Positions 3,687-31,071 of a stretch of DNA of 32,000 nucleotides are shown here, piece after piece; position 1 is the stretch's first letter, and each line of letters starts with the position of its first letter. This DNA comes from Pseudomonadota bacterium (GTDB taxonomy: Bacteria > Pseudomonadota > Alphaproteobacteria > Micropepsales > Micropepsaceae), in contig JAFECP010000013.1 in NCBI GenBank assembly GCA_018242105.1, positions 40,650 through 72,649 on the forward strand. Reading direction: 5' to 3'. The notes beneath the pieces are model-generated. The model was not told the DNA's origin. It did not search any database and saw only the letters and a list, made by a program, of their open reading frames with translations. A program made the translations under genes and the position numbers.

Positions 3687-4350
3687 GGATCATGTAGCCG
3701 GCGCCGCGCACCGTATGAAGGAGCGGTGCATCGAATCCCTTGTCGATCTTCGCGCGCAGACGCGAGATATGCACATCGATCACGTTGGTCTGCGGATCGA
3801 AATGGTATTCCCACACGCTTTCCAGAAGCATGGTGCGCGTCACCACCTGGCTGGCATGGCGCATGAGATATTCCAGCAGACGAAACTCACGCGGTTGCAG
3901 ATCGATGGATGCTTCCCCGCGCTTCGCGGTGCGGGTGAGAAGATCCAGTTCCAGATCGCCAACCTGAAGGCGCGTCTTCACGGCGGCAGGATGACGCCGG
4001 CGCATCAGCGCGTCGAGCCGCGCCAGCAATTCGACGAAGGCATAAGGCTTGGTGAGATAATCGTCGCCACCGGCCTTCAGCCCTTTGACGCGATCGTCCA
4101 CTTCCGATAGCGCGCTGAGAAACAGAACCGGCGTCACATTGCCGTGCTGGCGCAACTCTTCGACGAGCTTCAGGCCGTCCATCTTTGGCAACATGCGGTC
4201 CACAATGGCCACGTCGTAGGGGCGCGACAAGGAAAGCGACAGACCGATCTCGCCGTCATCTGCGTCATCGACCACATGACCCGCCTCTTTGAGGCCGTTC
4301 ACCAGGTAACGCTGGGCTTCAAGATCGTCTTCAACCACAAGAATGCGCAT
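3673..4350 (-). CDS. OmpR/PhoB-family response regulator
   Basis: The track ORF 3673..4476 was trimmed to ATG 4350..4348 (MRILVVEDDLEAQRYL...), which is preceded by AGGAG (CAGGAGTCTTTTATG). Receiver domain with DVAIVDRMLPKMDG. Winged-helix C-terminus LQPREFRLLEYLMRH...NVIDVHISRLRAKI. Confidence 0.9.
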   Translation of the reverse strand: MRILVVEDDLEAQRYLVNGLKEAGHVVDDADDGEIGLSLSLSRPYDVAIVDRMLPKMDGLKLVEELRQHGNVTPVLFLSALSEVDDRVKGLKAGGDDYLTKPYAFVELLARLDALMRRRHPAAVKTRLQVGDLELDLLTRTAKRGEASIDLQPREFRLLEYLMRHASQVVTRTMLLESVWEYHFDPQTNVIDVHISRLRAKIDKGFDAPLLHTVRGAGYMIRARA

Positions 4351-4437
4351 AAAAGACTCCTGAATCGTCAATTTCTGAAATGGGTCCGCGCCGGCGGCAG
4401 CAACGGGGGGATGGGGCCGCCACCACCGGCGCGGGGG

Positions 4438-4471
4438 CCGGACAACGCGGACTTGCGTCCGCGCGGTCCGG
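4438..4471 (-). other. GC-rich interrupted stem-loop between degP and the response-regulator gene (possible attenuator or RNA processing/stability element)
   Basis: CCGGAC-AA-CGCGGAC-TTGC-GTCCGCG-CG-GTCCGG is 13 paired positions around a 4-nt loop, lying 11 nt past the degP stop. There is no U-tract, so it is not a canonical intrinsic terminator. Confidence 0.3.
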
Positions 4472-4481
4472 TACACAGTTC

Positions 4482-6035
4482 CTATGCACCCAGTTTGATT
4501 GCCACGAAGCGCTGACCGCCCTGGCCCGTGACGAGGACCAGAACCGTGTCGCGATGCGCTGCCTGCGCGGCCGCCACGCTGGCCTTCACATCTTGCGGCG
4601 ATCGCACCGGATGGTTCGCGATCGATACGAGAACATCGCCAGGCTCGAGACCTTTATCCGCTGCGTCACTGTTGGGATCGACCTTGGTGATGACGACACC
4701 GTTCACGTTGCCGCCAAGATTGAAAGCCCGGCGTGTTTCAGGCGTGACGGCGGCCAGCCCCAGCCCCATCGCTTGCGCGGTCTCCGCGGGATGGCTGTTG
4801 CTGTGTGGAGACGCCGAAGCGACCTGCTGATCCTTCTTCGCGCCGATCTTCACTGTGAGCGTTTTGTTGTTGCCATCGCGCACGACGGTAAAGGCCGCCT
4901 TCGAACCGGCCGGAAGCGCGGCAACACGGCGTGTAAGATCGCGAGAATCTTCCACGGGCTTTCCGTTCACGGCGAGAACGATATCACCCGCAACCATGCC
5001 GGCCTGCGCCGCGGGACCGCCTGGCGAAACACTGGCGACGATAGCGCCCTTCATGTTCTTGGATCCAAGGCTCGCGGCCATTTCCGGCGTGACACTTTGA
5101 ATCTCGACGCCCAGATAACCGCGCGCGACGTGGCCATGCGCCTGCAATTGCGCCACGACGTCGTGGATGGTGGACGCCGGGATAGCGAATCCGATGCCCA
5201 CACTGCCGCCGGATGGCGAGAAGATCATCGAATTCATGCCGATGACCTTGCCCTGGATGTTGAAAGTCGGGCCGCCCGAGTTGCCGCGGTTGATCGGCGC
5301 ATCGATCTGGATGAAATCTGTGTACGGCCCGTTTCCGACGTCGCGGCCGATGGACGAGACGATGCCGGCGGTCACCGTGTTGCTGAGGCCGAAGGGATTG
5401 CCGACAGCGACGACCCAGTCGCCAACGCGCACCTGGCGGTCATCGCCGAACTCGACCGACGGCAGCGGCTTGTCGCTTTTCACTTTCAGCAACGCAACAT
5501 CTGTAGCGGCATCGGTGCCGATCAGCTTGGCGGTGAATTCGCGGCCATCGGGAAATTTGACGGTTATCTTCTTGCCGCCCTGAACGACGTGGTTGTTCGT
5601 GACGATGTAGCCGTCCTTATTGATGACGAAGCCCGACCCCATCGCGATCGCCTTGCGCGGCACGCCTTGGCGGCCTTGCCCGCCGAACTGGTTGAAGAAA
5701 TCGCGGAACGGTTCGGGAATCTGGTCGGGATCAAAGTCCGCGGTCTGCTTCACCTGCTCTTCGACGGTAATCGTGACGACGGCGGGGCTGACGCGCTCCA
5801 CCAGATCCGCGAAGGAGAACGGCGCGCCGCTCTCGATCATGCGTGGTGTCGTCGGATGCGGGGCGACGGCGAGGGGAGCAGGTTGTGGCTTCTGCGGCGC
5901 GTGCTGCTGTTGCGGCTTTTGCCCGGGTTGCGTCATCGCAAAGGCGCCCAACCCGCCGACCACCAACACACCAGCAGCCACCGAGGCGAGCAAGCGGCCG
6001 CGAAATCCTTGAAAAACCTGATCCGTCTTCTTCAT
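4482..6035 (-). CDS. degP: Periplasmic serine endoprotease, HtrA/DegP/DegQ family (trypsin-like domain plus two PDZ domains)
   Basis: 517 aa with a signal-like N-terminus LLASVAAGVLVVGGLGAFA. Catalytic motifs are TNNHVV (His), DVALLKV (Asp) and GNSGGP (Ser). Two PDZ-like regions (GVEIQSVTPEMAASLG..., GVVITKVDPNSDAADKGLEPGDVLVSI). ATG 6035 is preceded by GGAG (GGAGAAAAAAATG). Confidence 0.92.
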   Translation of the reverse strand: MKKTDQVFQGFRGRLLASVAAGVLVVGGLGAFAMTQPGQKPQQQHAPQKPQPAPLAVAPHPTTPRMIESGAPFSFADLVERVSPAVVTITVEEQVKQTADFDPDQIPEPFRDFFNQFGGQGRQGVPRKAIAMGSGFVINKDGYIVTNNHVVQGGKKITVKFPDGREFTAKLIGTDAATDVALLKVKSDKPLPSVEFGDDRQVRVGDWVVAVGNPFGLSNTVTAGIVSSIGRDVGNGPYTDFIQIDAPINRGNSGGPTFNIQGKVIGMNSMIFSPSGGSVGIGFAIPASTIHDVVAQLQAHGHVARGYLGVEIQSVTPEMAASLGSKNMKGAIVASVSPGGPAAQAGMVAGDIVLAVNGKPVEDSRDLTRRVAALPAGSKAAFTVVRDGNNKTLTVKIGAKKDQQVASASPHSNSHPAETAQAMGLGLAAVTPETRRAFNLGGNVNGVVITKVDPNSDAADKGLEPGDVLVSIANHPVRSPQDVKASVAAAQAAHRDTVLVLVTGQGGQRFVAIKLGA

Positions 6036-6182: not shown

Positions 6183-6596
6183 CTAGGGGCTGCCCGATTC
6201 CAGCCTTTTGCGCGCGCGGACAATCACAAGCATCACCGCCGCTCCCCCAATCAGCAAAATCCCGAGAGGGCCAAACCAGAGCGCATAGGTAAGCGGCTCA
6301 AGAGGCGGTTTCATCAGGATGAAATCTCCGTAGCGCGCAACGAGATATTGTTCAACCTGTTCGTCGCTGTCGCCAGCTTTAATTCGCACACGGATCAAAT
6401 GCCGCAAATCCGCCGCAAGCGGCGCACTCGACTCGTCCAGCGATTGTCCCTGACAGACAACACAACGAAGTTCCTTTTGCAGCGCCACCGCGCGCGCTTC
6501 CAACTTGGGGTCGGCGAGTTTTTCGGAACCGGCAACCGCGAACGCTGCATGGATGCAGAGCAGACTAAAAAACAGCGTAAGCAGAACGCGTTTCAT
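6183..6596 (-). CDS. ccmH: Cytochrome c-type biogenesis protein CcmH (CycL)
   Basis: Signal peptide MKRVLLTLFFSLLCIHAAFA, the hallmark LRCVVCQGQSLDES (CXXC) motif, and a C-terminal TM segment. The track ORF 6183..6650 was trimmed to ATG 6596..6594, which overlaps the ccmF stop as ATGA. Confidence 0.9.
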   Translation of the reverse strand: MKRVLLTLFFSLLCIHAAFAVAGSEKLADPKLEARAVALQKELRCVVCQGQSLDESSAPLAADLRHLIRVRIKAGDSDEQVEQYLVARYGDFILMKPPLEPLTYALWFGPLGILLIGGAAVMLVIVRARKRLESGSP

Positions 6597-8518
6597 TCCG
6601 CCGCCGCCAGCTTCGCCTCGGACACACGGCGCGGACGCAACCTTCCCCAAAAACTTGCGATACCGCCCAGCGCCATGAACGCGCCGCCGAACCAGATAAA
6701 CGGTGCAAGCGGGCTGACATAAGCGCGGATAACCCAGCCGCTACCGCGCTGGTCCCCCAGCGCGAGATAGAGATCGGAGAACCCCGTGGTGCGAATGGCA
6801 GTTACCGCCGTCGCCTGCCCTTCGACGGGAAAGGCGCGCTTCTCCGGCGCCATCGTGGCAATGATGCGATTGTTCGCAATCACGCTCACCGTGGCGCGTT
6901 CGGCCAAATAATTCGGACCGTGCAGAAGCTGCACACCTTCCAGACGCAGCGTGTAACCGGCGATCGGCATGGTCTGGCCTGGCTTGAGAAGATCGAGCGC
7001 CTCGCTACGCCAGAGGGTCGTGCCGGTGATGCCCAGAAGCGTGATGCCGAGGCCTAGATGCGCCAGCGCCGACGCGAACGCGCCGATCGGCAAGGCGCGA
7101 ATATCGCCGCGCTTCGCAAGATCGATCCCCGCGGCGGAGATCGTCCACAGGCCCAGCCCGAACGCCATCGCGGCGACCAGCGAACGCGGCGTGACGAACG
7201 CAAGCACCGCCAGCACCGCGACAAGCGCGATTCCGAAAGCCGGTGCAAGAACGCGCAGCGCCGCGCGCCAATCGCCATTGCGCCAGCCGAGACGCGGGCC
7301 GAATGGCACAAGCGCGATAAGCACGACGAAGATCGGCGCAAAGGTGATCGCGAAATAGGGCGGTCCGACCGAAATCTTCTGACCGGTCATCGCATCCAGC
7401 AGCAAAGGATAAAGCGTCCCGATGAACACGGTCGCAGCGGCGGCGGACAGCAGCACATTGTTCAGCAACAACGCACTTTCCTTGCTGACCGGCTCAAACG
7501 CCGTCCCGCCCTGCAACTGCGGCGCACGCCACGCAAAGAGCGCCAACGCACCGCCAATGGCGGCAACCAGCATCGCCAGAATATAGACGCCGCGCGTGGG
7601 GTCGCTGGCGAAAGCGTGGACCGACGACAACACGCCGGAACGCACCAAGAAGGTGCCGATCAGGCTCAGCGAGAAACCCAGAATAGCCAGCAGCAAGGTC
7701 CAGCTTCGGAAAGCGCCGGTGCGTTCGGTGGCAAGCGCGGAGTGGAGCAGCGCGGTCGCGATCAGCCAGGGCATGAGCGCCGCGTTCTCCACCGGATCCC
7801 AGAACCAGAATCCGCCCCATCCCAGAACGTAATAGGCCCACCAGCTTCCCAGCGTGATACCCAGGGTCAGCGCAATCCATGCCAGCAACATGAAAGGACG
7901 TGCCGCACGCGCCCACGCGGCATTGGATTCACCCGTGATGAGCGCCGCGGCGGCATACGAGAACGCCGCGGACAGGCCGACATAGCCGATGTAGAGCATT
8001 GGCGGATGCATCGCCAAACCCGGATCCTGCAGCAGCGGATTCAACCCCGCGCCTTCAAAGGGCATCGGATCCAGGCGCAGAAACGGGTTGGATGTGAACA
8101 GTATGAAAAGAAGAAATGCGCAGGCGAGCAATCCCTGAACACCCAGCGCCGCCGAGGTCAGCCGCGCGCTGCCGCGCTGTGCGAACACGATGAAAAGCGA
8201 ATAGATCGCCAGCACGAAGACCCACAACAGCATGGAACCTTCGTGGCTGCCCCAAACGCCGGTGATCTTGTAGATCATCGGCTTGGCGGTGTGCGAATTC
8301 TGCGCGACGTTGAGCACGCTGAAATCGGACGTAACGAACGCATAAGTCAGCGCGCCGAACGCCAGCGCCACGAAAACGAACATGCCGATGGCGGCGCTGG
8401 ATGCAATGGCGCGCGATGGCGATGCCGTCTCGCGGGCGCCTGCCAGACCGGCGATCGCCATCACCACCGACAATGCAAACGCCAGGGCGAGCGCGAGCTG
8501 GCCGATTTCTCCGGTCAA
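6593..8518 (-). CDS. ccmF: Cytochrome c heme lyase subunit CcmF (CycK)
   Basis: 641-aa polytopic membrane protein with the Trp-rich heme-handling motif WGGFWFWDPVENAALMPWL. The start codon in the track is TTG (8518..8516), overlapping the ccmE stop as TTGA. The N-terminus MTGEIGQLALALAFAL fits CcmF. Confidence 0.92.
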   Translation of the reverse strand: MTGEIGQLALALAFALSVVMAIAGLAGARETASPSRAIASSAAIGMFVFVALAFGALTYAFVTSDFSVLNVAQNSHTAKPMIYKITGVWGSHEGSMLLWVFVLAIYSLFIVFAQRGSARLTSAALGVQGLLACAFLLFILFTSNPFLRLDPMPFEGAGLNPLLQDPGLAMHPPMLYIGYVGLSAAFSYAAAALITGESNAAWARAARPFMLLAWIALTLGITLGSWWAYYVLGWGGFWFWDPVENAALMPWLIATALLHSALATERTGAFRSWTLLLAILGFSLSLIGTFLVRSGVLSSVHAFASDPTRGVYILAMLVAAIGGALALFAWRAPQLQGGTAFEPVSKESALLLNNVLLSAAAATVFIGTLYPLLLDAMTGQKISVGPPYFAITFAPIFVVLIALVPFGPRLGWRNGDWRAALRVLAPAFGIALVAVLAVLAFVTPRSLVAAMAFGLGLWTISAAGIDLAKRGDIRALPIGAFASALAHLGLGITLLGITGTTLWRSEALDLLKPGQTMPIAGYTLRLEGVQLLHGPNYLAERATVSVIANNRIIATMAPEKRAFPVEGQATAVTAIRTTGFSDLYLALGDQRGSGWVIRAYVSPLAPFIWFGGAFMALGGIASFWGRLRPRRVSEAKLAAAE

Positions 8519-18957: not shown

Positions 18958-20499
18958 TCAGAGCCTTGCATCCAGAGCCAGATAGGCCGATTCACCGAGA
19001 TAGAGATTTCCCATGTCACCCACCGTTCCATTGAAACTTGTGCCAGCTTGCAGCCGCAAGACGATAGCGCTGCCAGTGTCGGCACCAGCCGTGGTCACAG
19101 TCAGCGCACCACTGATGGTCAGAAATCCGCTGCCAGCATTGTCGTAGAAGTTGAGTTGATTGCCGCTGGGTGAGCCACCGGCCCAGCTAGGGTTGCTATG
19201 CCGCAATACTGGAATACCCCGCATTTCCACCGGAAACTGGAACGGGCCATCGATGGTGAACGAAGCGGACTTCTGCATCAGGAAGCTTGCGGCCGCGAGG
19301 CTGCCGTTGGCGCGGCAGATGTCCTGATAGAAGCGCTTCGCGAGAAGAACTTCCCTCGGCCGGGGCCGCACGATGAACGGGGAATGCGCGGCATCGGGCA
19401 CATCGGCGAAGCTTGCCCCGGCAACAAGCGGCAGCACGCCAAGGCCCGTGATCTGAAAAACATCCGATGTCGCCGCCACCGCGTTCGCCGTTCCCGTGGC
19501 GCCACTGCAATCGCCCGCCGCCCACGCATCCGGCGTGCCGAGGCGCGAGGCGCCACCGGCGACGCAGATCGTGGCATAGAGACCGACGCTGGTGTCGATC
19601 GCCCAGGTTCCTGCCGTGTCGCCGGTGTTGACCAGAACGGATTTCATTTCCCATGTGTCAGCGGCATTGATGCTGAAGCCGAACGGATAGGAGCGCGTCT
19701 TGCCGGCATTTCGCAGCGATCCCGAAAACGCGCCAGTGCGATGCGACTTCACCCAGAAGAAGATTGCGCAGGCATTGGCCTGCGCCGTTCCGAATGCGAG
19801 CCGCGCGGCGTTCAGCCCTTCCACCGGAATGACGAGAGACAACTCGTCATTCACGCCGAGCGCAGATTGCGCCGTGGTGACCGCCAGTTTGAGCGAATTG
19901 CGAAAACCGGGCGGGCAATCCGCGACCTGCTGCGCGGATGCCGTGAAGCTTCCGCGGAAGGCCGCCATCACGCCATCGACAAGATATTTGGTCTGCAAGG
20001 TTCCGGTGGCTGAGAGCGCGACGCTGTTCACACCGTTCTCCTGGCTCACCTCCATGCCGCCGTTGATGTTGAGCAGCAGATCCGCCATCGCCTCGATAGG
20101 CGCGGCGCGGATGGCGGCGCGCGTCTGGTCCGGCACAAGGAGCGCGGGCGCGAGCGTGGCCGAATAGTCCAGCCAGTTGCCATCGTCATAAACGACGATC
20201 GCAGCCTCGTCGCTGACATAGGCGACGAGTCCCGCAAAGGGCGTGTAGAAGCGCCAGCCGCCATCGGCGCAATAGGCGATCTTGCCGTCCTGCCCCGCCC
20301 ATGCGCCGGTGCCGATGGCTTTGATCAGATAAGTGTCGCCGTCGGCAGGCGATGACGGCGGCGCGGAAAGATCGCGGTCCAGAAAGCGGGCGCAGAGCAG
20401 CGCATCGAATTGATAGAGCGCTTCATTGTGGGTGACGTGCTTTTGCGCCTGTGCGGCCGCGAGCAGCGGCGCACCGGCGCGCGGTGTGGTGTCTGTCAT
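18958..20499 (-). CDS. DUF2793-domain protein, putative GTA tail fibre or receptor-binding protein (513 aa)
   Basis: The N-terminus AQAQKHVTHNEALYQFDALLCARFLDRDLSAPPSSPADGDTYLIKAIGTGAWAGQDGKIAYCADGGWRFYTPFAGLVAYVSDE matches my memory of the DUF2793 signature. The remaining ~400 aa are Gly/Ala/Thr/Ser-rich and look beta-rich. It lies directly downstream of g15. Confidence 0.8.
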   Translation of the reverse strand: MTDTTPRAGAPLLAAAQAQKHVTHNEALYQFDALLCARFLDRDLSAPPSSPADGDTYLIKAIGTGAWAGQDGKIAYCADGGWRFYTPFAGLVAYVSDEAAIVVYDDGNWLDYSATLAPALLVPDQTRAAIRAAPIEAMADLLLNINGGMEVSQENGVNSVALSATGTLQTKYLVDGVMAAFRGSFTASAQQVADCPPGFRNSLKLAVTTAQSALGVNDELSLVIPVEGLNAARLAFGTAQANACAIFFWVKSHRTGAFSGSLRNAGKTRSYPFGFSINAADTWEMKSVLVNTGDTAGTWAIDTSVGLYATICVAGGASRLGTPDAWAAGDCSGATGTANAVAATSDVFQITGLGVLPLVAGASFADVPDAAHSPFIVRPRPREVLLAKRFYQDICRANGSLAAASFLMQKSASFTIDGPFQFPVEMRGIPVLRHSNPSWAGGSPSGNQLNFYDNAGSGFLTISGALTVTTAGADTGSAIVLRLQAGTSFNGTVGDMGNLYLGESAYLALDARL

Positions 20500-20516
20500 A
20501 TTTGTTTTTCCTGTTG

Positions 20517-20635
20517 TTTCCTCCCCCGTTTACGGGGGAGGTGCTGAGCGAGTGCGAAGCGGAGGGGGCCGCCTCACGAATTCCCCCTCCGGCTCACTGC
20601 GTTCGCCTCCTCCCCCGTAAACGGGGGAGGAAAAA
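20517..20635. repeat. Nested-palindrome repeat, copy A (intergenic, between the g15 stop and the DUF2793 gene start)
   Basis: TTTCCTCCCCCG-TTTA-CGGGGGAGG + TGCTGAGCGAGTGCGAAGCGGAGGGGG + loop + CCCCCTCCGGCTCACTGCGTTCGC + CTCCTCCCCCG-TAAA-CGGGGGAGGAAAAA. The terminal hairpin modules are inverted copies of each other. Confidence 0.88.
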
Positions 20636-23600
20636 TCATGCGAAGAAAATCTCCGCCGTCTTGCCCGCGCCGCGCCCCACAACGCTGGAGAGCTGATAGA
20701 CGGTGAAGCGGAACGGCGAGGGCAAGCCGGACGGAAAATCGGCCGCGATCTGCGCGGCGGAATATGCAAGCGGCGCGGCGGCGTTGTTCAACGCGCGCTT
20801 CACCGCGCCCGCGCCGTCGAGGATCTCAACATCGTAGGCTTCGGCGGTTTCGCTCATGGGAATTTCGGTTTGATCCCAGCCGTCGCTGCCGGGCGAGCGG
20901 TCGCGGCGAATCCAGGAGAGGCGAAGATCGCCGCTGTCTGCATAGACCGCGCCCAACTGGCATGGCGCGAGAGGACGCATGCCGATGCCTTCGAATTGCA
21001 GTTCTGCGCCCCTATAGGCGGAATCGGAGATGGGCTTGCCTTTGGGACCCCACAGATATTGGAACGGCAGCGCATATTGATCCTGTGCCAGCGAAAGCTG
21101 CTGCAGCGCATTGTTGAGAACGACCGCCCGCGCGCCGGCAAGAACCGGATCGCGCATCGCGCCTTCGGTGCCCGCCTGCCCGCGCAGCAACCGCGACAGC
21201 ATCCATGTGCCCGGCGCGGTGAGCGTTGCTGCGGCGAATTGCAGGATTTCCCAGCCGCCGTCTTCATTCTCAATGGCGAGCGCATTGCCGCCCGCGAAAA
21301 CGGAAAGATCGTCCTGCGATGCCAGCGTGCCGTTATAGAGTTTGATACCGACACTGTTCACATCGTCCCAGCGCCAGGCGGGGCCGGAGAACAGATCGGT
21401 GGTGGTCTCGCCGATATCGGCGGCCAATGTGAGCGCGGTGTCGAGCTGGAAATTGGAATCCGTCGCGCTGCGCAGGATGAAGACCGAGCCGGGCCACGGA
21501 TCGGCATAAGCCGCGGCCAGCGGCGCCCACGCATTCCGATCGCCGCCCAGCAAAGGCAGATCGAGAAACACCGTCAGCGCACGGCCCGGCGCGGCGGGCT
21601 TCGCCGCCGCCAGAACGCGCGCCGCACCGGCGAATATCTCATAGATCGACGGATCGGTGGCGATGGCCTGAATGCCGCGCGCGCCGGCATCGCCGATCTC
21701 GTTGAGGCGCAGGCGGTGTGTGCGTCCGCCCGCGCTCAATTCCACTTCATCCGCCGGATCGAGCGACAGCCAGGATGGCGCGAGCGCGAATTGCGCCGTC
21801 TCCCGCTGCACCCACGCATCCTGCAACAGACGCGCGCCGATCCCGGAGGCCTGCGCCTGGTCCATCACGATGGGCAAGGTGGATTGCGCAACGCGGTCCG
21901 ACGCCGCCACCAGCCGCCGCGCTTCGGTGACGGATTGGCGGTAGTCGCCCGCATCGATGTAAACGACGCGCGAAGCCAGCGGCAGATCGGTTTCCTGCGC
22001 TCTGGTGAGCGAGAAGCCGAAGCTTGCATCGCCATCAGGCATGACGAGATCGCTTTCTTCCAGCGCCGTGGCGGCGGGCTGGCCGCGCATGCGGAACTTC
22101 ACCACGCCTTCGCTCTCCACCGCGTCGAAATGATAGGCGACCGACAGCGGCGTGATCGCATCGCGCGGGCTCATCGTGCCGGTGACGGCGAAACCGGTGA
22201 CGATGCCGGTGAGGCCGGAAACATCGTAAGCGGTGAAATTCGCGTCTTCACACAGCGCCGCAACGAGATCGGCGAGTTGCACCGCGCCAAGGCGCCCGTT
22301 CAGCCAATGGCCCAGCGTATAGTTGCCCGCATCACCCCACACATTCGACAGCGCCGGAAACGCCGGATAGGGCCGCGCGTCCCAGCACCATAGCCGCGTG
22401 TTCGCGATATCGACCATGCGGCCGGAATAAACGGACGACACCGGATTGTTGGCGTTGTTTGTCCAAAAATTCAGATGCGCTTCGAGGAAACGCCGCTGGA
22501 TGAGATCGTCCCGCGTGCCGTTCGAGTAATAGGGCAGGAAGCTTTCGCTGGATTTGGGATCGACGAAGACATTGGGCTGGTTGGAGCCCTTGTCCACCGC
22601 GGGGCATCCCAGCTCGGTGAAGACGATGGGCTTGCTCTGCGGCGCCCAATCCGTGGCGCTCGCGCTTTCGCTGCCGCCGGCGCGGTCATAATGGGTGCTG
22701 CTCCACCAGTTCCAGAAATCCTTCGCGCGCCAAACCCAAGGCTTGCCGAGCGCATCGGTGACCGGCGCGCGGGTTTGCGCGGCGCGGTCCGCATCGCTGG
22801 CATAATACCAGTCATAGCCCTCGCCGCCCCGGATGTTGCGCGTGAGATAAGCCGCATCGTGGATGCCGGTTGGGCCGTTGGCCGCGTCGTAATCCAAATG
22901 TGCCGTGCCATCGCGCCAATCGGAGAGCGGCATGTAATTGTCGATGCCGATGAAATCGATATTGGCGTCGCTCCACAGCGGATCGAGGTTGAACAGCACT
23001 GCGCCGGGCGCATCGCCCGTCTGGTGGTTGTTGTATTCGCTCCAGTCGGCGGCGTATCCGATCTTCGTGCTGCTGCCCAGAATCGCGCGCACATCGGCGG
23101 CGAGCGCCTTCAATGCCGCGACCGCCGGATAGGACGTTGCGCCGTCCCGCACCCGAGTGAGCCCGCGCAGTTCGGAACCGATCAGGAAAGAGTCCACGCC
23201 GCCCGCCGCCGCGCAGAGATGCGCATAATGCAGCACCATGCGCCGGTAGCCCCAATCGCTGCCGCCGGTCCATGAAACAACGGCGCCGTTGACAATGAAA
23301 TCGGATATCCGCGCGCCGCCGAAGAAGGCGCTCACCTGCGCTGCCGCCGCGCTTGTTTTGTCGGGCGAGCCGGAAACGCCCGGCGCGGGATCGCAGGTGA
23401 TGCGGCCGCGCCAGGGATAAGCGGGCTGGCCGTTCGCGCCGGTATAGGGATCGGTGAGCGCGTTGCCTTGCGGAACATCCATGAACAGGAATGGGCAGAA
23501 CATCACCTTCCACCCGCGCGCTTTCAGATCCGCGATCGCCTGCACGACGCTTTCGTCCGACGGTGTGCCGCCATAGGCGGGGCGGCCATCCACCGTGCTC

Positions 23601-24595
23601 ACGACATGCGCAGCATCGCGCGCGATGCCGTTGACGCTCCATATCTCGGGATAGGTTTGCTTGGTGGCGTTCTCCACGCCGGGCTTCACCGTGCAATCGC
23701 CGCAACGCAGATCGCCGCCGAACCAGCCGGCGACCAGCGATACCGCGCCGATGTTCGGTGCAAGCGCCTGTAACCGATCGAGTGAGGCGGCGATGTCGGC
23801 CACGCCCGCGGCGCTATGCGCGTTTTGCGGCGCGGTGGCGCCCGCGCCGTCGTCTGCAGTCACCACATCGGTGGCATAAACGAACTCGCCCGCGCCGGGG
23901 ATGAGCGCCACGCCGGGCAGAACATTCTCCAGCGCGCCGGGATCGGTATCGGAGATCGGGCGGACGATCTCGAACTGAAGCTGAGGTATGCGGTTGCCGA
24001 AAGCGGCAAGCGGCATGTCCTCGAACACGATATAAGAGAGGCCGCGATAGGCGGGCGTGTTGCCCTCCCCTTCGATTTCCTGGATCAGCGGGTCCTGCGG
24101 TTGTGTTTCATCGCCGGGATAGAAGCGCGTCGTGAAAGGCGACAGGTCCAGAAGATTGCCGTTGGCCCACGCACGGCCGATGGCGGCAACCCTGCCCGCG
24201 CACAAGCCAACCGCGAAAGAGATGGAATAGGCGTAATCGGTTTCGGTGACCGAACTGCCGCCGCCCTTGCCGCCCACGCTGGTTTTGGCGGTGCTGGATG
24301 TTTCCTTGAAGTTCGTCGCCCAGATGAGCTGCCCCGCCACGCGCATGCGCCCGAACACGCGCGGGATGGGCGCGCCTTCGGTGGAGGACTGGATGTTGAT
24401 GCCGCTGAGCCGCGGGCCTTGCCGCTGCATATTGGCGCCGGGCGCCAGCGTCGCATCGATCTCGCTGCCCGCGAACGCACCGATCGCGCCGCCGATGGCC
24501 GCGCCGGAGAGCGTGGCGCCGAAGATCGAGATGCCGCTGCCCAGCAGCGCATTGCCCACCGCCTCACCGGCGATGCCCAGAACAAGAGAGGCCAT
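20636..24595 (-). CDS. g15: GTA g15 homologue: large baseplate / host-specificity protein with a glycoside-hydrolase-like TIM-barrel (GTA_TIM) region and a phage-tail C-terminal part (1319 aa)
   Basis: Track ORF 20636..24664 was trimmed to ATG 24595. The N-terminus is MASLVLGIAGEAVGNALLGSGISIFGATLSGAAIGGAIGAFAGSEIDATLAPG...GPRLSGINIQSSTEGAPIPRVFGRMRVAGQLIWATNFKE. Mid-region: GVDSFLIGSELRGLTRVRD...IGYAADWSEYNNH...IDFIGIDNYMPLSDWRDG. Confidence 0.92.
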   Translation of the reverse strand: MASLVLGIAGEAVGNALLGSGISIFGATLSGAAIGGAIGAFAGSEIDATLAPGANMQRQGPRLSGINIQSSTEGAPIPRVFGRMRVAGQLIWATNFKETSSTAKTSVGGKGGGSSVTETDYAYSISFAVGLCAGRVAAIGRAWANGNLLDLSPFTTRFYPGDETQPQDPLIQEIEGEGNTPAYRGLSYIVFEDMPLAAFGNRIPQLQFEIVRPISDTDPGALENVLPGVALIPGAGEFVYATDVVTADDGAGATAPQNAHSAAGVADIAASLDRLQALAPNIGAVSLVAGWFGGDLRCGDCTVKPGVENATKQTYPEIWSVNGIARDAAHVVSTVDGRPAYGGTPSDESVVQAIADLKARGWKVMFCPFLFMDVPQGNALTDPYTGANGQPAYPWRGRITCDPAPGVSGSPDKTSAAAAQVSAFFGGARISDFIVNGAVVSWTGGSDWGYRRMVLHYAHLCAAAGGVDSFLIGSELRGLTRVRDGATSYPAVAALKALAADVRAILGSSTKIGYAADWSEYNNHQTGDAPGAVLFNLDPLWSDANIDFIGIDNYMPLSDWRDGTAHLDYDAANGPTGIHDAAYLTRNIRGGEGYDWYYASDADRAAQTRAPVTDALGKPWVWRAKDFWNWWSSTHYDRAGGSESASATDWAPQSKPIVFTELGCPAVDKGSNQPNVFVDPKSSESFLPYYSNGTRDDLIQRRFLEAHLNFWTNNANNPVSSVYSGRMVDIANTRLWCWDARPYPAFPALSNVWGDAGNYTLGHWLNGRLGAVQLADLVAALCEDANFTAYDVSGLTGIVTGFAVTGTMSPRDAITPLSVAYHFDAVESEGVVKFRMRGQPAATALEESDLVMPDGDASFGFSLTRAQETDLPLASRVVYIDAGDYRQSVTEARRLVAASDRVAQSTLPIVMDQAQASGIGARLLQDAWVQRETAQFALAPSWLSLDPADEVELSAGGRTHRLRLNEIGDAGARGIQAIATDPSIYEIFAGAARVLAAAKPAAPGRALTVFLDLPLLGGDRNAWAPLAAAYADPWPGSVFILRSATDSNFQLDTALTLAADIGETTTDLFSGPAWRWDDVNSVGIKLYNGTLASQDDLSVFAGGNALAIENEDGGWEILQFAAATLTAPGTWMLSRLLRGQAGTEGAMRDPVLAGARAVVLNNALQQLSLAQDQYALPFQYLWGPKGKPISDSAYRGAELQFEGIGMRPLAPCQLGAVYADSGDLRLSWIRRDRSPGSDGWDQTEIPMSETAEAYDVEILDGAGAVKRALNNAAAPLAYSAAQIAADFPSGLPSPFRFTVYQLSSVVGRGAGKTAEIFFA

Positions 24596-24611
24596 TTTGA
24601 TTTTCTTTCTT

Positions 24612-24647
24612 CCAAACAAAAACGGCGGCCCAATGGACCGCCGTTTT
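24612..24647 (-). terminator. Strong rho-independent (potentially bidirectional) terminator between the TPR lipoprotein gene and g15
   Basis: AAAACGGCGG-CCCAATGGA-CCGCCGTTTT is a perfect 10-bp stem. On the minus strand it is followed by TTTTTGTTTGG. It lies 22 nt after the TPR stop and ends 17 nt before the g15 ATG. Confidence 0.75.
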
Positions 24648-24668
24648 CCAAATGCGTGGTTCAAGTGT

Positions 24669-25337
24669 TCAGGGTGTCACGCCATAGCCGGCATACGTCT
24701 CAGCGACCTTTGGATCGATCGCTTTCGCTGCTGCGATGTCAGCATTGCCGTTTTGCAGGTCTGCCGTCTTCAATCGCGCGAGCCCGCGTACATAAAACGG
24801 CGACGCGGCTTTCGGATAGATGGAAAGAACTGCGGTAGTATCCGCAATCGCGGCAGAATAGTTCTTCATTCTGAATTCGACGAAGGCCCGGCTGTTCAAC
24901 GCGGCCGCGTCGCCGGGGCGCAGCGCAAGCGATTGATTGCAATCCGCCAGCGCCTGATCGAAAGGACCGCCGACCACTGCCCGGTCGAAACAGAGATTTT
25001 CGTAGATGCCCGGTCTGTTGGGATCGTGCCGACCACCCAGCGTCGTCGCTTGTTGGAGATCGGCGATGGCCAGATCGAACTTTCCGAGTTCCTGATAGGC
25101 GATCGCGCGCCCGTAACGCGGCCAGGAATAGCCCTGCCATACCATGGCCTGCGCTGCTGTGGTGCAATCGATCACGCGCTGCTCGGCGGGCTGCCCTTCG
25201 CGGCCCAGGCATCTGCCGGCGATATCCGTGGCGCCGCGCCCGACTTGCGCAAAGCCGGGCACACCGGCAGCGGCGGGCGCGCCACAACATGCAGCAAGAA
25301 CAAGAAGCGTGAGCGCAAATTCAGCGCGGTGTTTCAT
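24669..25337 (-). CDS. TPR-repeat lipoprotein (222 aa), non-canonical insert between GTA g14 and g15
   Basis: Track ORF 24669..25463 was trimmed to ATG 25337, preceded by AAGGGGGA. Lipobox signal MKHRAEFALTLLVLAACCG. TPR-like repeats include YGRAIAYQELGKFDLAIADLQQATTL and FDQALADCNQSLALRPGDAAALNSRAFVEFRMKNYSAAIADTTAVLSIYPK. Confidence 0.8.
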   Translation of the reverse strand: MKHRAEFALTLLVLAACCGAPAAAGVPGFAQVGRGATDIAGRCLGREGQPAEQRVIDCTTAAQAMVWQGYSWPRYGRAIAYQELGKFDLAIADLQQATTLGGRHDPNRPGIYENLCFDRAVVGGPFDQALADCNQSLALRPGDAAALNSRAFVEFRMKNYSAAIADTTAVLSIYPKAASPFYVRGLARLKTADLQNGNADIAAAKAIDPKVAETYAGYGVTP

Positions 25338-25404
25338 ATGTTCCCCCTTCGAAAACCTGCCCGCCCTCAAGAGGGTTCCATAACCATTGGTGGAGGACAA
25401 ATAT

Positions 25405-25938
25405 TTACAGCCGGAATACTGCCACGGTCTTTTGCTTCCAGAACAGCGAAAGCATCTCTTCATTCACGCACTTGTTCTGCCGCGCATGAATGAGCGTGAG
25501 CTTTCCTCCCCCGTTTACGGGGGAGGTGCCGAGCGCAGCGAAGGCGGAGGGGGCCTCCTCCCCCGTAAACGGGGGAGGAAAAGCACCTATGATCCCGCAA
25601 TGCTTGGCGGGACCGTTCGGCAGCATGCGAAAGAGCGCGGTGTCGCCGGGGGCGATGTCGCGCTTGTCGATCTCGCGCAGGTGGCGGGAGAGCGCTGCAT
25701 ATAATGTCTCCTCGCCGGTCGCTTCCGCCCAGTCCGGCGAATAAGGTGGCGCGGTTTCGGGTTCTTCGCCATGCAATTCGCGCCACACGCCGCGCAGCAG
25801 GCCCAGGCAATCGCAGCCCGCGCCTTTCACGCTCGCCTGATGGACATAGGGCGTGCCAATCCAGGAGCGGGCGGCTTCGACAATTTGCGCTTGCGAATTT
25901 TGCACGCGGAGACGCGGAGGCGCGGAGTCGTCCACCAT
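25405..25938 (-). CDS. g14: GTA g14 homologue, NlpC/P60 cell-wall peptidase, carrying a 27-codon in-frame repeat insertion
   Basis: IVEAARSWIGTPYVHQASVKGAGCDCLGLLRGVW (catalytic Cys), AKHCGII (His), LTLIHARQ (third triad residue), with C-terminus WKQKTVAVFRL. The start is uncertain: ATG 25938 (MVDDS), ATG 25950 (MTERM) or GTG 25905. The rest of track ORF 25405..26265 is read-through of repeats. Confidence 0.85.
   Translation of the reverse strand: MVDDSAPPRLRVQNSQAQIVEAARSWIGTPYVHQASVKGAGCDCLGLLRGVWRELHGEEPETAPPYSPDWAEATGEETLYAALSRHLREIDKRDIAPGDTALFRMLPNGPAKHCGIIGAFPPPFTGEEAPSAFAALGTSPVNGGGKLTLIHARQNKCVNEEMLSLFWKQKTVAVFRL
25502..25582. repeat. Nested-palindrome repeat, copy B (short form, 81 nt, intragenic in g14)
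   Basis: TTTCCTCCCCCG-TTTA-CGGGGGAGG + TGCCGAGCGCAGCGAAGGCGGAGGGGG + CCTCCTCCCCCG-TAAA-CGGGGGAGGAAAA. It lacks the second inner arm present in copies A, C and D. Confidence 0.88.
25903..25928. repeat. Left arm of a 26-nt long-range inverted repeat (three CGCGGAG units)
   Basis: CACGCGGAGACGCGGAGGCGCGGAGT pairs with the reverse complement of 26065..26090 at 24 of 26 positions. Confidence 0.6.
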
Positions 25939-25944
25939 TCTCTC

Positions 25945-26044
25945 CGTCATGGCCGCCCGCGTGACGGCCATCCATTTTCCAGAGGCGCGCGAAACCTGCT
26001 CTGCTTCTGGAAAATGGGTCCCCGGCATAAGGCCGGGGATGACG
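25945..26044. repeat. GTCATCCCGG-type palindromic repeat, copy F (degenerate, between g13 and g14)
   Basis: CCGTCATGGCCG...CCATTTTCCAGA-N22-TCTGGAAAATGG...CCCCGGC-ATAAG-GCCGGGGATGACGG. The termini CCGTCAT and ATGACGG are inverted. The right end matches the CCGGGATGAC end of copy E. Confidence 0.6.
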
Positions 26045-26064
26045 GTTGAGGGAGCAGGAAATGA

Positions 26065-26090
26065 ACTCCGCGACTCCGCGGCTCCGCGTG
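26065..26090. repeat. Right arm of the 26-nt long-range inverted repeat (three CTCCGCG units)
   Basis: ACTCCGCGACTCCGCGGCTCCGCGTG lies 5 nt downstream of the g13 stop in mRNA sense. Confidence 0.6.
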
Positions 26091-26095
26091 ATTTT

Positions 26096-26977
26096 CTAGT
26101 TTCCATATCTGCTGCCTCCATCCATCGGCTGGCTGGCGGTGGGATAGGCCAGCACCGCGTCGTTGCCGGGCATGTAGGGGAAGCCGCGGAAGTTGATCGC
26201 GTTGTTGAACTTGCTCTTGCAGGTGGCAAATTGCTTGTCGCATCCGGCGGTGATGGTGAAGGCATCGCCCGCCACGACCGCCTCGCTCATGGACTGCCAG
26301 AGCTCGATGGCGACGCCGGTGTGACGCTTCACTTCCATGGCGCGGCCCTTGTTCGCGCCGCCGGTCCACACAAGCTTGCCGCCGGTGAACCAGCCATCGC
26401 CGAAACTGCCGAGGCCGCTGACGGTGAAACGCCGCGCATCCGTGGCGCTGACCACCGCGCCGTCCGCACGGAATGCAGCGCGCGTGAGGTCGATGGTGCA
26501 GCGCGCATCGCCCAGATCGGCGTCGCAGCCATAGCCGAAGCAGCGCCCGACCGGCTGGTTCAAGATGTGGGCGAGCCCGCGCACCTCCGCCGTGAAGGCG
26601 CATACCCCACGTTTAACCTCGCCAAGATTTCCCTTGCGCATGAGCACGCGCTGGCTCACGTCGCTCCAATTCACGCGCCAGATCTCGATGCTCGCGTTGT
26701 CATAGAGACCGGCGGCAAGATCGGCGTCGTTGAGCGTGGACGACGACAGCGCGCCACTGACGGAGAGATTGTCGATCGCCAGATCGAGCAGGGACTGCAC
26801 TTCGGTGGCCGTGAAACCGGACGCGGCTTCATAGGTGACGCCATCGAAAGTCAGATCGGCATCGTGATCGGTGAAGCCTTGGGTAGCGCCATCGTTGCGC
26901 GCTATTTTCCAGCACCAGCACAAGGTGGTGGCGCCGCTATCGAGATGCGCCTGCATGCCTTCCGGCAAATTTTTCAT
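26096..26977 (-). CDS. g13: GTA g13 homologue (DUF2163 plus BR0599-type C-terminal domain, baseplate hub)
   Basis: MKNLPEGMQAHLDSGATTLCWCWKIARNDGATQGFTDHDADLTFDGVTYEAASGF... and C-terminal CDKQFATCKSKFNNAINFRGFPYMPGND. I prefer ATG 26977 (GGAG 7 nt upstream) over the track start 26995. Confidence 0.88.
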   Translation of the reverse strand: MKNLPEGMQAHLDSGATTLCWCWKIARNDGATQGFTDHDADLTFDGVTYEAASGFTATEVQSLLDLAIDNLSVSGALSSSTLNDADLAAGLYDNASIEIWRVNWSDVSQRVLMRKGNLGEVKRGVCAFTAEVRGLAHILNQPVGRCFGYGCDADLGDARCTIDLTRAAFRADGAVVSATDARRFTVSGLGSFGDGWFTGGKLVWTGGANKGRAMEVKRHTGVAIELWQSMSEAVVAGDAFTITAGCDKQFATCKSKFNNAINFRGFPYMPGNDAVLAYPTASQPMDGGSRYGN

Positions 26978-27004
26978 TTCATGCTCCATTGTCATGGTGA
27001 GAGA

Positions 27005-27667: not shown

Positions 27668-27922
27668 ATGACACCGAAGCCCTGGTTCAGGTTTTTCTCC
27701 AAATGGGGACTGCCGTATCTCATCCTTCCCATTCATCCGATGGGATGCGGATTGATTTTGGCATTCATGTTTGGCGCTCTCGCTTGGGGAGCATTTTGCA
27801 TGTTCTGCAGGGGCGTCGGCCTGTTATCAGACAGCTTCGTTCCTGCAGTGCTCTTTTTGCCGCTCCTGTTTGCGTACATTCTCTTCATGCGGACTGTGCT
27901 CGAACATTCTGAGAAAAAATGA
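27668..27922 (+). CDS. Candidate small hydrophobic protein (84 aa) on the opposite strand, inside a low-GC insert between g11 and g12
   Basis: This is the last 84 codons of track ORF 25853..27922: MTPKPWFRFFSKWGLPYLILPIHPMGCGLILAFMFGALAWGAFCMFCRGVGLLSDSFVPAVLFLPLLFAYILFMRTVLEHSEKK. It has two clear hydrophobic helices and AT-rich third positions. There is no convincing SD, so coding status is unproven. Confidence 0.4.
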   Translation: MTPKPWFRFFSKWGLPYLILPIHPMGCGLILAFMFGALAWGAFCMFCRGVGLLSDSFVPAVLFLPLLFAYILFMRTVLEHSEKK

Positions 27923-28595: not shown

Positions 28596-28946
28596 TCAGG
28601 CGGCCGAGGCCGAAGGCGAGCCTTTGCCGCCAGCGGCCAAAGGGTCGCTCACCTCGCGGTTCACCAGCGCGAACACATCGGCGATGGCCTGCACGATGGT
28701 GGCCAGATCGACAGGCAGCCTGAGCACATCGTTCGCCGTCACGTCATGCCCGCCCGCGCGCAACAGTGCCGCGGCAACGGCGGCGATGTCCCCGGTGGCG
28801 AAGGATTTGAGGCGCGTAGCGAGATCCGAAAGGCTCGCCACGTTGAACGCAGCTTCGATCTCGGCCAATGCGCCGAGCGTGAGCCGCATCGTGAATTTCT
28901 CTCCTGCGGCCAGGAAGGATGTTTCGCCGCGAGCGGGGTTTGTCAT
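28596..28946 (-). CDS. g10: GTA g10 homologue (rcc01692-like, tail assembly chaperone-like), 116 aa
   Basis: Track ORF 28596..29096 was trimmed to ATG 28946, which has GGAGG 7 nt upstream. MTNPARGETSFLAAGEKFTMRLTLGALAEIEAAFNVASLSDLATRL... The extension in the track is read-through of repeat copy C. Confidence 0.8.
   Translation of the reverse strand: MTNPARGETSFLAAGEKFTMRLTLGALAEIEAAFNVASLSDLATRLKSFATGDIAAVAAALLRAGGHDVTANDVLRLPVDLATIVQAIADVFALVNREVSDPLAAGGKGSPSASAA
28638..28644 (-). other. Candidate -1 programmed frameshift heptamer C CCT TTG in the g10 zero frame
   Basis: The g10 codons GAC CCT TTG place CCCTTTG in X XXY YYZ phase. A -1 slip enters the g10.1 frame. A GC stem GGCGGC...GCCGCC starts 6 nt downstream. 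Confidence 0.35.
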
Positions 28947-28963
28947 TTGGTTTCCTCCATAAA

Positions 28964-29092
28964 TTCCCCCCCCGTTTACGGGGGAGGTGCTGAGCGCGCA
29001 CCTCGCGCGCGAAGTGGAGGGGGACTGTCGCGCGGGCGGCCCCCTCCAGCTCACCTCGTTCGCGTCCTCCCCCGTAAACGGGGGAGGAAAAA
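28964..29092. repeat. Nested-palindrome repeat, copy C (intergenic, between the g9 stop and the g10 start)
   Basis: TTCCCCCCCCG-TTTA-CGGGGGAGG + TGCTGAGCGCGCACCTCGCGCGCGAAGTGGAGGGGG + loop + CCCCCTCCAGCTCACCTCGTTCGCG + TCCTCCCCCG-TAAA-CGGGGGAGGAAAAA. Confidence 0.88.
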
Positions 29093-30060: not shown

Positions 30061-30365
30061 GGCAGTTCCTCGCATTCGAGCGTGAGATAGTTGCCGCCGC
30101 CGTCCAGCACCGCATGGATGCGGAAGTTGCGCGTGCCGATGGCGGCTCGCTGGCCGGTGGCAATCGCGGCGTTGCGGCGGATGATGAGCTTGTGGCGCAC
30201 GCGGCTTTCCACCGCGTCCGGCCCATAGACATCGCCGCCGGATTGTGGCGCGATCCGCGTCCATAGCGTTGCGACGGTGTTCCAGCTTTCGCTGTAACCG
30301 CCGCCGCCGTCGGGAATCATCGTGCACGCGAGAACGCGCGCGCGCTGGTTCAGTTCGCCGATCAC
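30057..30365 (-). CDS. g7: GTA g7 homologue, head-tail adaptor (TIGR01563-like)
   Basis: (M)IGELNQRARVLACTMIPDGGGGYSESWNTVATLWTRIAPQSGGDVYG... The GTG start 30365..30363 overlaps the g6 stop as GTGA. Confidence 0.85.
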   Translation of the reverse strand: MIGELNQRARVLACTMIPDGGGGYSESWNTVATLWTRIAPQSGGDVYGPDAVESRVRHKLIIRRNAAIATGQRAAIGTRNFRIHAVLDGGGNYLTLECEELP

Positions 30366-30922
30366 AGCTTCACCACGCGATAAGGGGCCAGAAGCGCGAG
30401 CGCATCCTGCGGAAGTTCCGCCGCTTCGTCGCCGCGATGGGCGTAAAGCACGGCGGCGATTTGCAGGATCGCCTGCTGGAGCGGCGCGGGAACGTCGCTT
30501 GCCGCGCCATAACCGGCGGTGAAGGCAATCGCGATGGCGTTCAGCGCGCGCAGATTCACCGGTGGCGAAGCGTTTGGCTTCAGCGCCAGCCGCGCGGGCG
30601 ATGCGGCGCTATCGAATTGATAAGTTGAAGCATCGAGAACGATTGGCGTGCCGTCCATCGCATAGGCCGTGACCGACGCCACGCTTTGCAGCGGCGGCAA
30701 CGGAATCTCGACGATGCCGTTGCAGGGCCAACCATCGAGCCAGAGCGTCCAGCTCTGCGTGACGAAGGCGCGGCCGGTGTTCCACTCGGCGCGGGCGCGC
30801 GCGGCGGCGATGAGCGACGTAATCAGCGCGTCGTCATCTGTGGTGTCGACGCGCAAATGCGCTTTCGCCTGATCGAGCGTGATGGGCTCGGCGGAGGGCG
30901 GGGTGGTGAGTTGTAAAGACAT
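30362..30922 (-). CDS. g6: GTA g6 homologue, gp6-like head-tail connector
   Basis: Track ORF 30362..31030 was trimmed to ATG 30922: MSLQLTTPPSAEPITLDQAKAHLRVDTTDDDALITSLIAAARARAEWNTGRAFVTQSWTLWLDGWP. The extension in the track is read-through of repeat copy D. Confidence 0.85.
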   Translation of the reverse strand: MSLQLTTPPSAEPITLDQAKAHLRVDTTDDDALITSLIAAARARAEWNTGRAFVTQSWTLWLDGWPCNGIVEIPLPPLQSVASVTAYAMDGTPIVLDASTYQFDSAASPARLALKPNASPPVNLRALNAIAIAFTAGYGAASDVPAPLQQAILQIAAVLYAHRGDEAAELPQDALALLAPYRVVKL

Positions 30923-30930
30923 GATGATCC

Positions 30931-31071
30931 TTTCCTCCCCCGCTTTGCGGGGGAGGTGCCGAACGAATGTGAGGCGGAGGGGGTGGCTGCGGCGAAGCAA
31001 GTTCTGCTCTGCTATCGCCACCCCCTCCACCGCTTCGCGGTCCCCCTCCCCCGTAAAACGGGGGAGGAAAA
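30931..31071. repeat. Nested-palindrome repeat, copy D (intergenic, between the g5 stop and the g6 start)
   Basis: TTTCCTCCCCCG-CTTTG-CGGGGGAGG + TGCCGAACGAATGTGAGGCGGAGGGGG + ~40-nt loop + CCCCCTCCACCGCTTCGCGG + TCCCCCTCCCCCG-TAAAA-CGGGGGAGGAAAA. Confidence 0.88.

Follow-up and report, generated by a model that had tools for sequence, protein, structure and literature searches.

A variable array of genes for putatively exported tetratricopeptide repeat proteins at the g14/g15 junction of Micropepsaceae gene transfer agent clusters

Gene transfer agent (GTA) clusters of the RcGTA type run from g14, the gene of the tail peptidase, to g15, the gene of the baseplate megatron, and the cluster analysed here raises the question of what an additional gene is doing between the two. 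The window, by which is meant the whole 32,000-nucleotide (nt) stretch analysed, lies on the Micropepsaceae contig JAFECP010000013.1 (assembly GCA_018242105.1) and encodes an RcGTA-type head-tail cluster on its minus strand. Between the g14 stop at 25405 and the g15 ATG at 24598 lies an open reading frame (ORF) for a tetratricopeptide repeat (TPR) protein of 222 amino acids (aa), on the same strand as its neighbours, exactly as described in an earlier note made from the sequence of this DNA. The note took the gene for an inserted moron, and this is half right: it is an extra gene at g14/g15, but not a one-off, as it belongs to a lineage-specific array that holds between 0 and about 5 paralogous TPR genes with export signals and is present here as a single copy. 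The best explanation as a whole, which has about an even chance of being right, is that the array is moron-like periplasmic cargo acting on components delivered by tails. The genes around the junction are as follows.

26096 to 26995, minus strand: g13, baseplate hub (Pfam Phage_phiJL001_Gp84_N and Phage_BR0599)
25405 to 25905, minus strand: g14, NlpC/P60 tail peptidase, the upstream neighbour (TIGR02219 at 1.1e-43)
24669 to 25337, minus strand: the TPR gene, 222 aa, sole cargo gene at the junction in the window (ORF and translation)
20636 to 24598, minus strand: g15, megatron (baseplate multidomain protein), the downstream neighbour (NF048004, 1751 bits)

A synteny survey of the junction, of the kind the earlier note had proposed, used the N-terminal 450 aa of g15 to search one genome for each GTDB species and returned 80 loci, in each of which g13, g14, relatives of the TPR gene and g15 were located. 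Outside Rhizomicrobium/Micropepsaceae 56 loci are informative, among them loci of Caulobacter, Hyphomonadaceae, Hyphomicrobiaceae, Rhodobacterales and Rhizobiales. In 54 of the 56 no more than 200 nt separate g14 from g15, which bears out the order g14 then g15 as the canonical one, and a TPR relative within 7 kb of g15 was found in none of the 56. Within Rhizomicrobium/Micropepsaceae (23 loci), g14 abuts g15 or lies no more than 175 nt away in 16, and a TPR-gene insert of 0.75-2.3 kb is present in seven (L006, L007, L010, L012, L014, L021 and L023). No TPR-family gene was seen at any other position of the clusters in the surveyed loci. The TPR gene thus has no fixed place in RcGTA-type clusters, being missing from all 56 loci of the first group and from 16 of the 23 of the second; it is an extra, non-core gene and not a structural GTA gene conserved across the order. 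On a tree of g15 the presence of TPR genes is patchy, and L005, whose junction is clean (0 nt, at about 134-135), is sister to L007 with its multiple TPR genes, which suggests either a precise loss or a recombinational replacement by a TPR-less cluster. In L084 the g14-g15 spacer measures 322 nt and holds no clear gene. The sole sizeable g14-g15 insertion outside Micropepsaceae is found in a Rhizobium metagenome-assembled genome (MAG; L046, 3595-4080, minus strand) and encodes, on the opposite strand, a small membrane protein of the Transgly_assoc (GlsB/YeaQ-type) family.

Contigs with close homologues of the window protein have the order g13-g14 (143 aa)-TPR (222 aa)-g15; orthologues at 69-86% identity fill the same g14-g15 slot, and an identical protein is deposited as a hypothetical protein from a 'Proteobacteria bacterium' MAG (P0001). 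Arrays that comprise 2 to about 5 genes were found in L007, L012, L087, L089, L092, L094, L106, L107, L128 and L143. Four tandem TPR genes of L087 encode 315, 269, 357 and 422 aa, L143 has about four, and the array of L094 includes an 881-aa TPR protein. The contig L092, whose sequence in this region is identical to that of the IMG/VR contig L172, encodes a g15 with an N-terminus that shares 88% identity with that of the window and holds the window orthologue together with a second TPR gene, 39% identical. The genes are closely packed: in L089 g14 overlaps (ATGA) the first of two TPR genes, and the same overlap occurs between array genes in L007, L012 and L087. In a Rhizomicrobium MAG (L023) the same junction carries a TonB_C-TPR fusion (2690-4144) and a separate secreted TonB_C protein (4299-4736; PF03544), which indicates that the junction collects periplasmic cargo besides TPR proteins.

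The products of these genes share a common plan. Every junction paralogue inspected starts with a signal peptide, and most have an N-terminal cysteine pair, C-x13-16-C, the motif C[WF]xRA...ALADC[ND] and a conserved C-terminus, ..SLYVRGLAK..GD..GG.ADIAAAKAIDPKIAxTYAGYGV.P; the exceptions are a 427-aa protein of L014, whose C-terminus differs, and a short subtype (L007, L106 and L128) in which the C-terminus is shortened. The paralogues are 30-45% identical to the window protein, and the N-termini of the flanking g15 proteins are 66-88% identical.

The window copy is a functional gene under purifying selection. Against the 80%-identical orthologue of L002 its ratio of nonsynonymous to synonymous substitution rates (dN/dS) is 0.10, compared with 0.11-0.17 for g12-g15, and its dS is 1.19 against 0.43-0.78. 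The encoded protein begins MKHRAEFALTLLVLAACCG, and the strong Shine-Dalgarno sequence claimed for it is indeed found 4 nt before the ATG.

25342 to 25349, minus strand: Shine-Dalgarno sequence AAGGGGGA, 4 nt upstream of the ATG
25338 to 25404, minus strand: spacer between g14 and the TPR gene, 67 nt, partly conserved with L001, L003 and L092

The G-rich Shine-Dalgarno sequence is kept in orthologous loci, among which the length of the G-run varies; near-identical contigs have G8, G7 and G5 (L001 at about 620-633, L002 at about 2598-2610 and L003 at about 620-631), a variation that may be assembly noise, or slippage that alters translation.

The lower GC content that the earlier note judged by eye holds clearly at third codon positions (GC3) and only slightly overall. 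With a GC content of 0.616 the TPR gene lies only a little below g14 and g15 (0.63-0.65) and close to g12 (0.617). At third positions the gap is clear: GC3 is 0.73-0.82 in g12-g15, about 0.72-0.77 in the non-GTA genes of the window and 0.655 in the TPR gene, the lowest value among the plausible window genes. The same offset recurs in 22 of 22 junction loci, where the GC3 of the TPR genes lies 4-16 points under that of the g15 N-terminus, with one array gene of L094 equal to it. By this measure the TPR genes look like genes outside the codon regime of the GTA structural genes. Their GC3 nevertheless follows the GC3 level of each genome, as expected of long-resident, host-type genes, and a recent foreign import of the cassette was rejected for this reason.

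At its downstream end the window gene is closed by a terminator-like hairpin.

24610 to 24648, minus strand: intrinsic-terminator-like hairpin and T-run, AAAACGGCGGTCCATTGGGCCGCCGTTTTTGTTTG (stem 13 bp, loop ATT), lying about 20 nt ahead of the g15 start

The 70-nt spacer between the TPR gene and g15 folds at -26.4 kcal/mol into a 13-bp GC-rich hairpin followed by TTTTTGTTT; a simple terminator scan did not flag the hairpin, which was confirmed by folding and comparison. The form ACGGCGG..CCGCCGTTTT occurs once per locus and at the same position in the window and in L006, L012, L023, L087, L092, L109 and L128, a GCGGCGG variant takes the same place in L001-3 and L007, no second copy was found elsewhere in those loci, and TPR-less loci lack the hairpin. 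Across the nine loci of alignment A5, 8 pairs are invariant, 1 is compensatory and the TTTT is invariant. The strong terminator that had been noted after the gene is thus upheld as a predicted terminator, and a conserved hairpin of this kind appears to close the array in most lineages. Conservation is stronger in the hairpin than in the upstream TPR genes, which points to a 3' boundary of the cassette that has a single origin and is under selection.

Export is the second property that bears on function. The window protein starts with MKHRAEFALTLLVLAAC, and a signal peptide can be read from its sequence.

25266 to 25337, minus strand: signal peptide, residues 1-24, ending in an AAA|G signal-peptidase-I site

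A hydrophobic, signal-like N-terminal region is present in 70 of 86 homologues. The several TPR repeats described in the earlier note are well founded, as Pfam TPR_1 (E=2.8e-14) and TPR_9 (E=8.6e-13) both match past their cut-offs and an AlphaFold2 model, built from 44 homologues, predicts an all-alpha TPR solenoid over residues ~32-217 with paired helices across residues 51-217 (mean predicted local distance difference test score, pLDDT, 87.7); residues 1-33 score below 50 and would be disordered or form the signal helix. The best fold matches of the model in the PDB (Foldseek) are a consensus TPR, OGT, SPY, APC and MamA. Cysteine 133 is invariant and cysteine 116 nearly so, and the consensus has a second pair near the mature N-terminus; two conserved pairs fit an oxidising periplasm, where a disulfide-bonded protein would be expected. 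The TPR protein is therefore predicted to be a small all-alpha protein exported via a Sec signal peptide.

It was also described as a lipoprotein, and here only the signal peptide and the presence of an LAAC motif (residues 14-17, 25287-25298) stand. With a lipobox taken as [LVI][ASTVI][GAS]C, placed where the signal peptide ends and conserved among orthologues, a lipobox-like motif is kept in five of seven orthologues, the cysteine being replaced by phenylalanine in P0005 (also in L092) and the motif being an atypical LVMC in P0007; outside this orthologue group it occurs in just 2 of 79 homologues. The AxA|G signal-peptidase-I site, 7-8 residues past the lipobox position, is invariant in all seven orthologues. 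The status of the protein as a lipoprotein is doubtful.

The TPR proteins of the junction belong to a wider family. The first alignment (A1) was too diverse for locus scans, and an alignment of the C-terminal module (A2) was used instead; the metagenome scan with this module returned 80 loci, picked at random from the family, of which 11 are at the g14/g15 junction, 19, which have enough flanking DNA to judge, are clearly elsewhere and the rest lie on short contigs. In IMG/VR both of the two family matches are GTA clusters. Three further homologues are found among ordinary chromosomal genes (L004, L085/086 and L088), and neighbour clustering around 38 non-GTA members gave no recurrent partner gene. 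A single junction per genome accounts for a third of the interpretable contexts, which is a strong association. In a collection of 50,697 phage records the window protein had no match and another junction paralogue had only generic TPR matches at no more than 29% identity, and in PHROGs the only match is phrog_7590, of unknown function. A 44-member profile run against 1.84 billion proteins gave 54,188 matches at 1e-30, which are swamped by giant multi-TPR proteins and so are uninformative on family size. A single specialised 'GTA clade' of TPR genes was considered and is unsupported by a low-resolution tree of the C-terminal 100 aa; the intermixed branching of this tree would rather fit a host periplasmic family that was recruited to one site, possibly more than once.

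The arrangement resembles that of phage morons (lambda bor/lom; HK97 gp15 type) in that an extra gene separates two genes which are neighbours in relatives and lies on the strand of the late operon, with a terminator after it, an atypical composition and an envelope product. The late operon would be expected to read through such a terminator by anti-termination, as with GafZ of the Caulobacter GTA, where an anti-termination complex carries RNA polymerase past in-cluster terminators and even the foreign rrnB T1 (PMC11150451). Given a strong terminator placed before the essential g15, the simplest reading would be that of phage-moron logic. The TPR gene fits the strict definition of a moron only in part, however: the extra gene, the predicted terminator and the composition agree with it, but no promoter was identified here, the TPR genes of some relatives are translationally coupled to g14, and the element that carries the genes is a GTA and not a prophage, with an expandable array of host-family paralogues in place of a single foreign gene.

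As to how such cargo may act, it is suggested that the junction genes were recruited from the larger family of solitary chromosomal periplasmic TPR proteins and that the TPR solenoid would be a scaffold for protein binding in the periplasm of cells with the cluster. Candidate targets are the ejected g14 peptidase, the tape measure protein and the megatron N-termini, and the binding of a target might limit wall damage or exclude entry, as T4 Spackle does. In uninduced cells the terminator would stop cassette transcripts from entering g15, and on GTA induction a GafZ-type anti-termination complex could read through it. The arrays and their fast turnover, including the TonB_C cargo of L023, may reflect a matching to diverse incoming tails. 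That the proteins act in the periplasm of cluster carriers on components delivered by GTA or related phage tails, in exclusion or in damage limitation, is by analogy possible, though it is more probably wrong than right. A further step would make the g14/g15 junction of Micropepsaceae GTAs a dedicated, diversifying 'periplasmic countermeasure' locus, where exported TPR proteins (in one lineage proteins with a TonB C-domain) would bind or decoy g14, the tape measure protein, the megatron N-termini or TonB-dependent entry, giving carriers exclusion or damage control, and where the terminator would insulate the locus from the structural operon, with read-through left to the GTA anti-termination machinery alone; this must be called speculative and rather improbable.

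Known systems offer precedents of differing closeness. Tandem immunity arrays are known from type VI effector-immunity pairs (Tae/Tai amidases; the tandem Sel1-repeat immunity genes of PldB), in which a wall enzyme delivered by a tail-like machine is likewise followed by one or more genes for periplasmic proteins with signal peptides; g14, however, is an enzyme that serves penetration, is present in single copy and is not a toxin, and there is no PADLOC match. The Llp protein of phage T5 and Cor are small outer-membrane lipoproteins that plug the receptor FhuA and block re-entry, and they too are envelope-targeted proteins encoded beside tail-tip or receptor-binding genes, whereas the present family consists mostly of non-lipidated periplasmic TPR proteins. 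T4 Spackle (gp61.3) is a periplasmic inhibitor of the tail lysozyme gp5 (PMC7677548). As is proposed for the TPR protein, it is small and exported, has its gene on the element itself and could block entry on meeting, in the periplasm, a peptidoglycan hydrolase that a tail delivers. The two have no relation in sequence or fold, Spackle not being a TPR protein, and Spackle is an early gene of a lytic phage; as an analogy it is nevertheless probably a closer precedent than NlpI.

The comparison with E. coli NlpI, which the earlier note had drawn, would make the TPR protein an outer-membrane lipoprotein that hands g14 to a Prc-like protease or restrains it. It has its attractions, since the TPR gene directly follows an NlpC/P60 gene, the window copy has a canonical LAAC lipobox and the pairing of an envelope TPR protein with an NlpC/P60 peptidase recalls NlpI-MepS-Prc in concept. 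In E. coli, however, nlpI is not linked to mepS, so that adjacency of the two is no family trait, and the lipobox is not conserved in orthologues and is almost absent from the family. Of the two kinds of profile search that had been proposed, the one for TPR found its target and the one for NlpI-like proteins did not: the NCBIfam matches (E<=0.01) include no NlpI profile, the best being weak generic ones to MamA, PrsT and Tgl, and NlpI is neither among 24 PDB sequence matches (phmmer) nor among the top 50 Foldseek matches in the PDB. Membership of the NlpI family was rejected on these searches, and only the generic TPR fold is common to both. The binding of MepS by NlpI occurs mainly via a disordered N-terminus of about 37 aa in MepS (PMC11211486), whereas orthologues of g14 are about 143 aa long, with a catalytic domain that begins about 10 residues from the N-terminus and no such disordered handle. 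A Prc-type protease gene is not present in the window. The peptidase does reach a periplasm, that of the recipient, as in the producer g14 is packed into the tail channel within the cytoplasm, travels inside it and is ejected only in the recipient (PMC7296036); given this packing, the handling of g14 by a TPR protein makes topological sense only in the periplasm of the recipient. A functional analogy, in which a tail-delivered wall hydrolase would be neutralised or handled in the periplasm for protection or exclusion, is possible, but an NlpI-type adaptor is very unlikely and the tempting analogy is corrected here as unsupported. Less credible still is a structural or assembly part of the GTA, such as a fibre chaperone or a baseplate accessory. 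The position among the baseplate genes g13-g15 would suit such a part, but the signal peptides and conserved cysteine pairs indicate export, and a protein that leaves the cytoplasm, where GTAs assemble, should not be a particle component. The gene is moreover missing from most clusters, including those of the R. capsulatus and Caulobacter types, and no true homologue was found among the phage records, so that this explanation is close to being dismissed.

Several observations weigh against periplasmic cargo acting on incoming tails, and some of them favour other explanations that are unlikely but are not as easily set aside. The arrays of L010 and L021 abut g15 without a terminator, the first TPR gene overlaps or abuts g14 in several relatives and array genes overlap (ATGA), and such overlaps speak for co-transcription with the GTA operon in producers, which lyse. 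A sigma-70-like promoter scan of 20000-27000 returned 0 sites, a consensus scan of this kind being weak for Alphaproteobacteria. PADLOC defence profiles gave no match for the window protein and two other junction proteins, the exclusion of kin GTAs would oppose gene exchange, and with about one g14 molecule per particle (PMC7296036) protection may be unneeded. The shared strand, the tight spacing, the overlaps (with g14 in L089), the lack of promoter sites and the arrays that run into g15 would all suit a helper on the side of the producer, made only in producers from the GTA operon and exported before lysis, which would assist in lysis or release, for instance by titrating factors that regulate how the wall is made or hydrolysed, or would act on particles once the cells have lysed. 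This explanation is unlikely, given that a long transcript alone hardly explains a conserved strong terminator upstream of the essential g15, that GC3 consistently differs from that of the structural genes, and that two thirds of the related clusters and all others manage without these genes. The low-resolution tree, in which junction and chromosomal members interleave, shows no GTA-specialised clade and speaks for an unrelated passenger, with an ordinary envelope function and no link to the GTA, for which the junction would be a permissive spot for landing and duplication. Many solitary chromosomal members in unrelated contexts (L004, L085, L086, L088 and the 19 metagenome loci), the host-like composition and the clean loss of the cassette in L005 agree with this, but the enrichment at the junction, in 11 of 80 random family loci and in both loci of the viral collection, does not; the association holds across clades in which the g15 N-terminus shares only 66-88% identity with that of the window, a second kind of periplasmic cargo (TonB_C) sits at the same site, and no other cluster position carries TPR genes. 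A passenger is judged to be about as improbable as the helper, and moron-like periplasmic cargo acting on tail-delivered components is retained as the best explanation.

The remainder of the cluster has features of its own. The megatron g15 also matches Pfam GTA_TIM, Phage-tail_3 and Rcc01698_C, g12 is a DUF2460 protein (Pfam), and a DUF2793 gene comes after g15. The start codon of g14 is either the GTG at 25905 or an ATG at 25938, and TIGR02219 covers only profile positions 2-100 of 134 in the window g14. Within this gene, at 25502-25582, lies an in-frame palindromic repeat of two inverted CCTCCCCCGTTTACGGGGGAGG units, which leaves the frame open and adds 23 aa (the FPPPFTGEEAPSAFAALGTSPVNGGG region) between the catalytic histidine (AKH) and LIHA; an alignment with the g14 of six relatives finds none with the insertion, which resembles the Rickettsia palindromic elements that lie within coding genes. 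It is one of four copies of a palindromic element of about 80-140 nt within the GTA cluster (20517-20634, 25502-25582, 28963-29091 and 30931-31070), the other three being intergenic, after g15, before the ORF at 28596-28940 and before the ORF at 30362-30925; the core motif has 12 matches where chance would give 0. Another palindrome, unlike this element, has 43-nt arms (25944-26045) and fills the g13-g14 spacer of about 150-190 nt, in place of which g13 and g14 overlap in relatives. Between g11 and g12, a low-GC (0.51) gap of about 300 nt, which in L002 measures 69 nt, holds a plus-strand ORF of 84 aa (27668-27922), opposite to the GTA genes, whose product, starting with MTPKPWFRFFSKWGLPYLILPIHPMGCGLILAFMFGALAWGAFCMF, is highly hydrophobic and has 2-3 predicted membrane helices; this ORF may represent another insertion specific to the window. 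Downstream of the GTA cluster (2259-6035) a two-component system consists of a HAMP/HisKA kinase and an OmpR-type regulator, a DegP/HtrA-type periplasmic protease with PDZ domains is encoded at 4482-6035 and ccmF lies at 6593-8518.

Full-text literature searches found no paper that reports accessory cargo in GTA clusters, be it TPR genes, morons or anything else, and no paper on the GTAs of Micropepsales. A TPR family, which may or may not be the present one, and a tonB family are among 14 gene families whose codon-adaptation trends follow GTA genes (PMC9765227). Moron-like cargo in the form of an expandable array inside a GTA cluster appears to be new in the literature searched. The head-tail clusters of GTAs are usually viewed as streamlined, vertically inherited sets of structural genes, and in one lineage a fixed junction harbours an accessory array, with variable copy number, purifying selection and products predicted to be exported. 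This raises the question of what the binding partner of a widespread, uncharacterised periplasmic TPR family is, and whether GafZ-type anti-termination is general enough for GTA clusters to tolerate or exploit internal terminators. It also raises the question of whether GTAs, like prophages, have exclusion or immunity functions; if the proposal of a countermeasure locus is true, no module of the immunity or exclusion type would have been described in a GTA cluster before that of the g14/g15 junction of Micropepsaceae.

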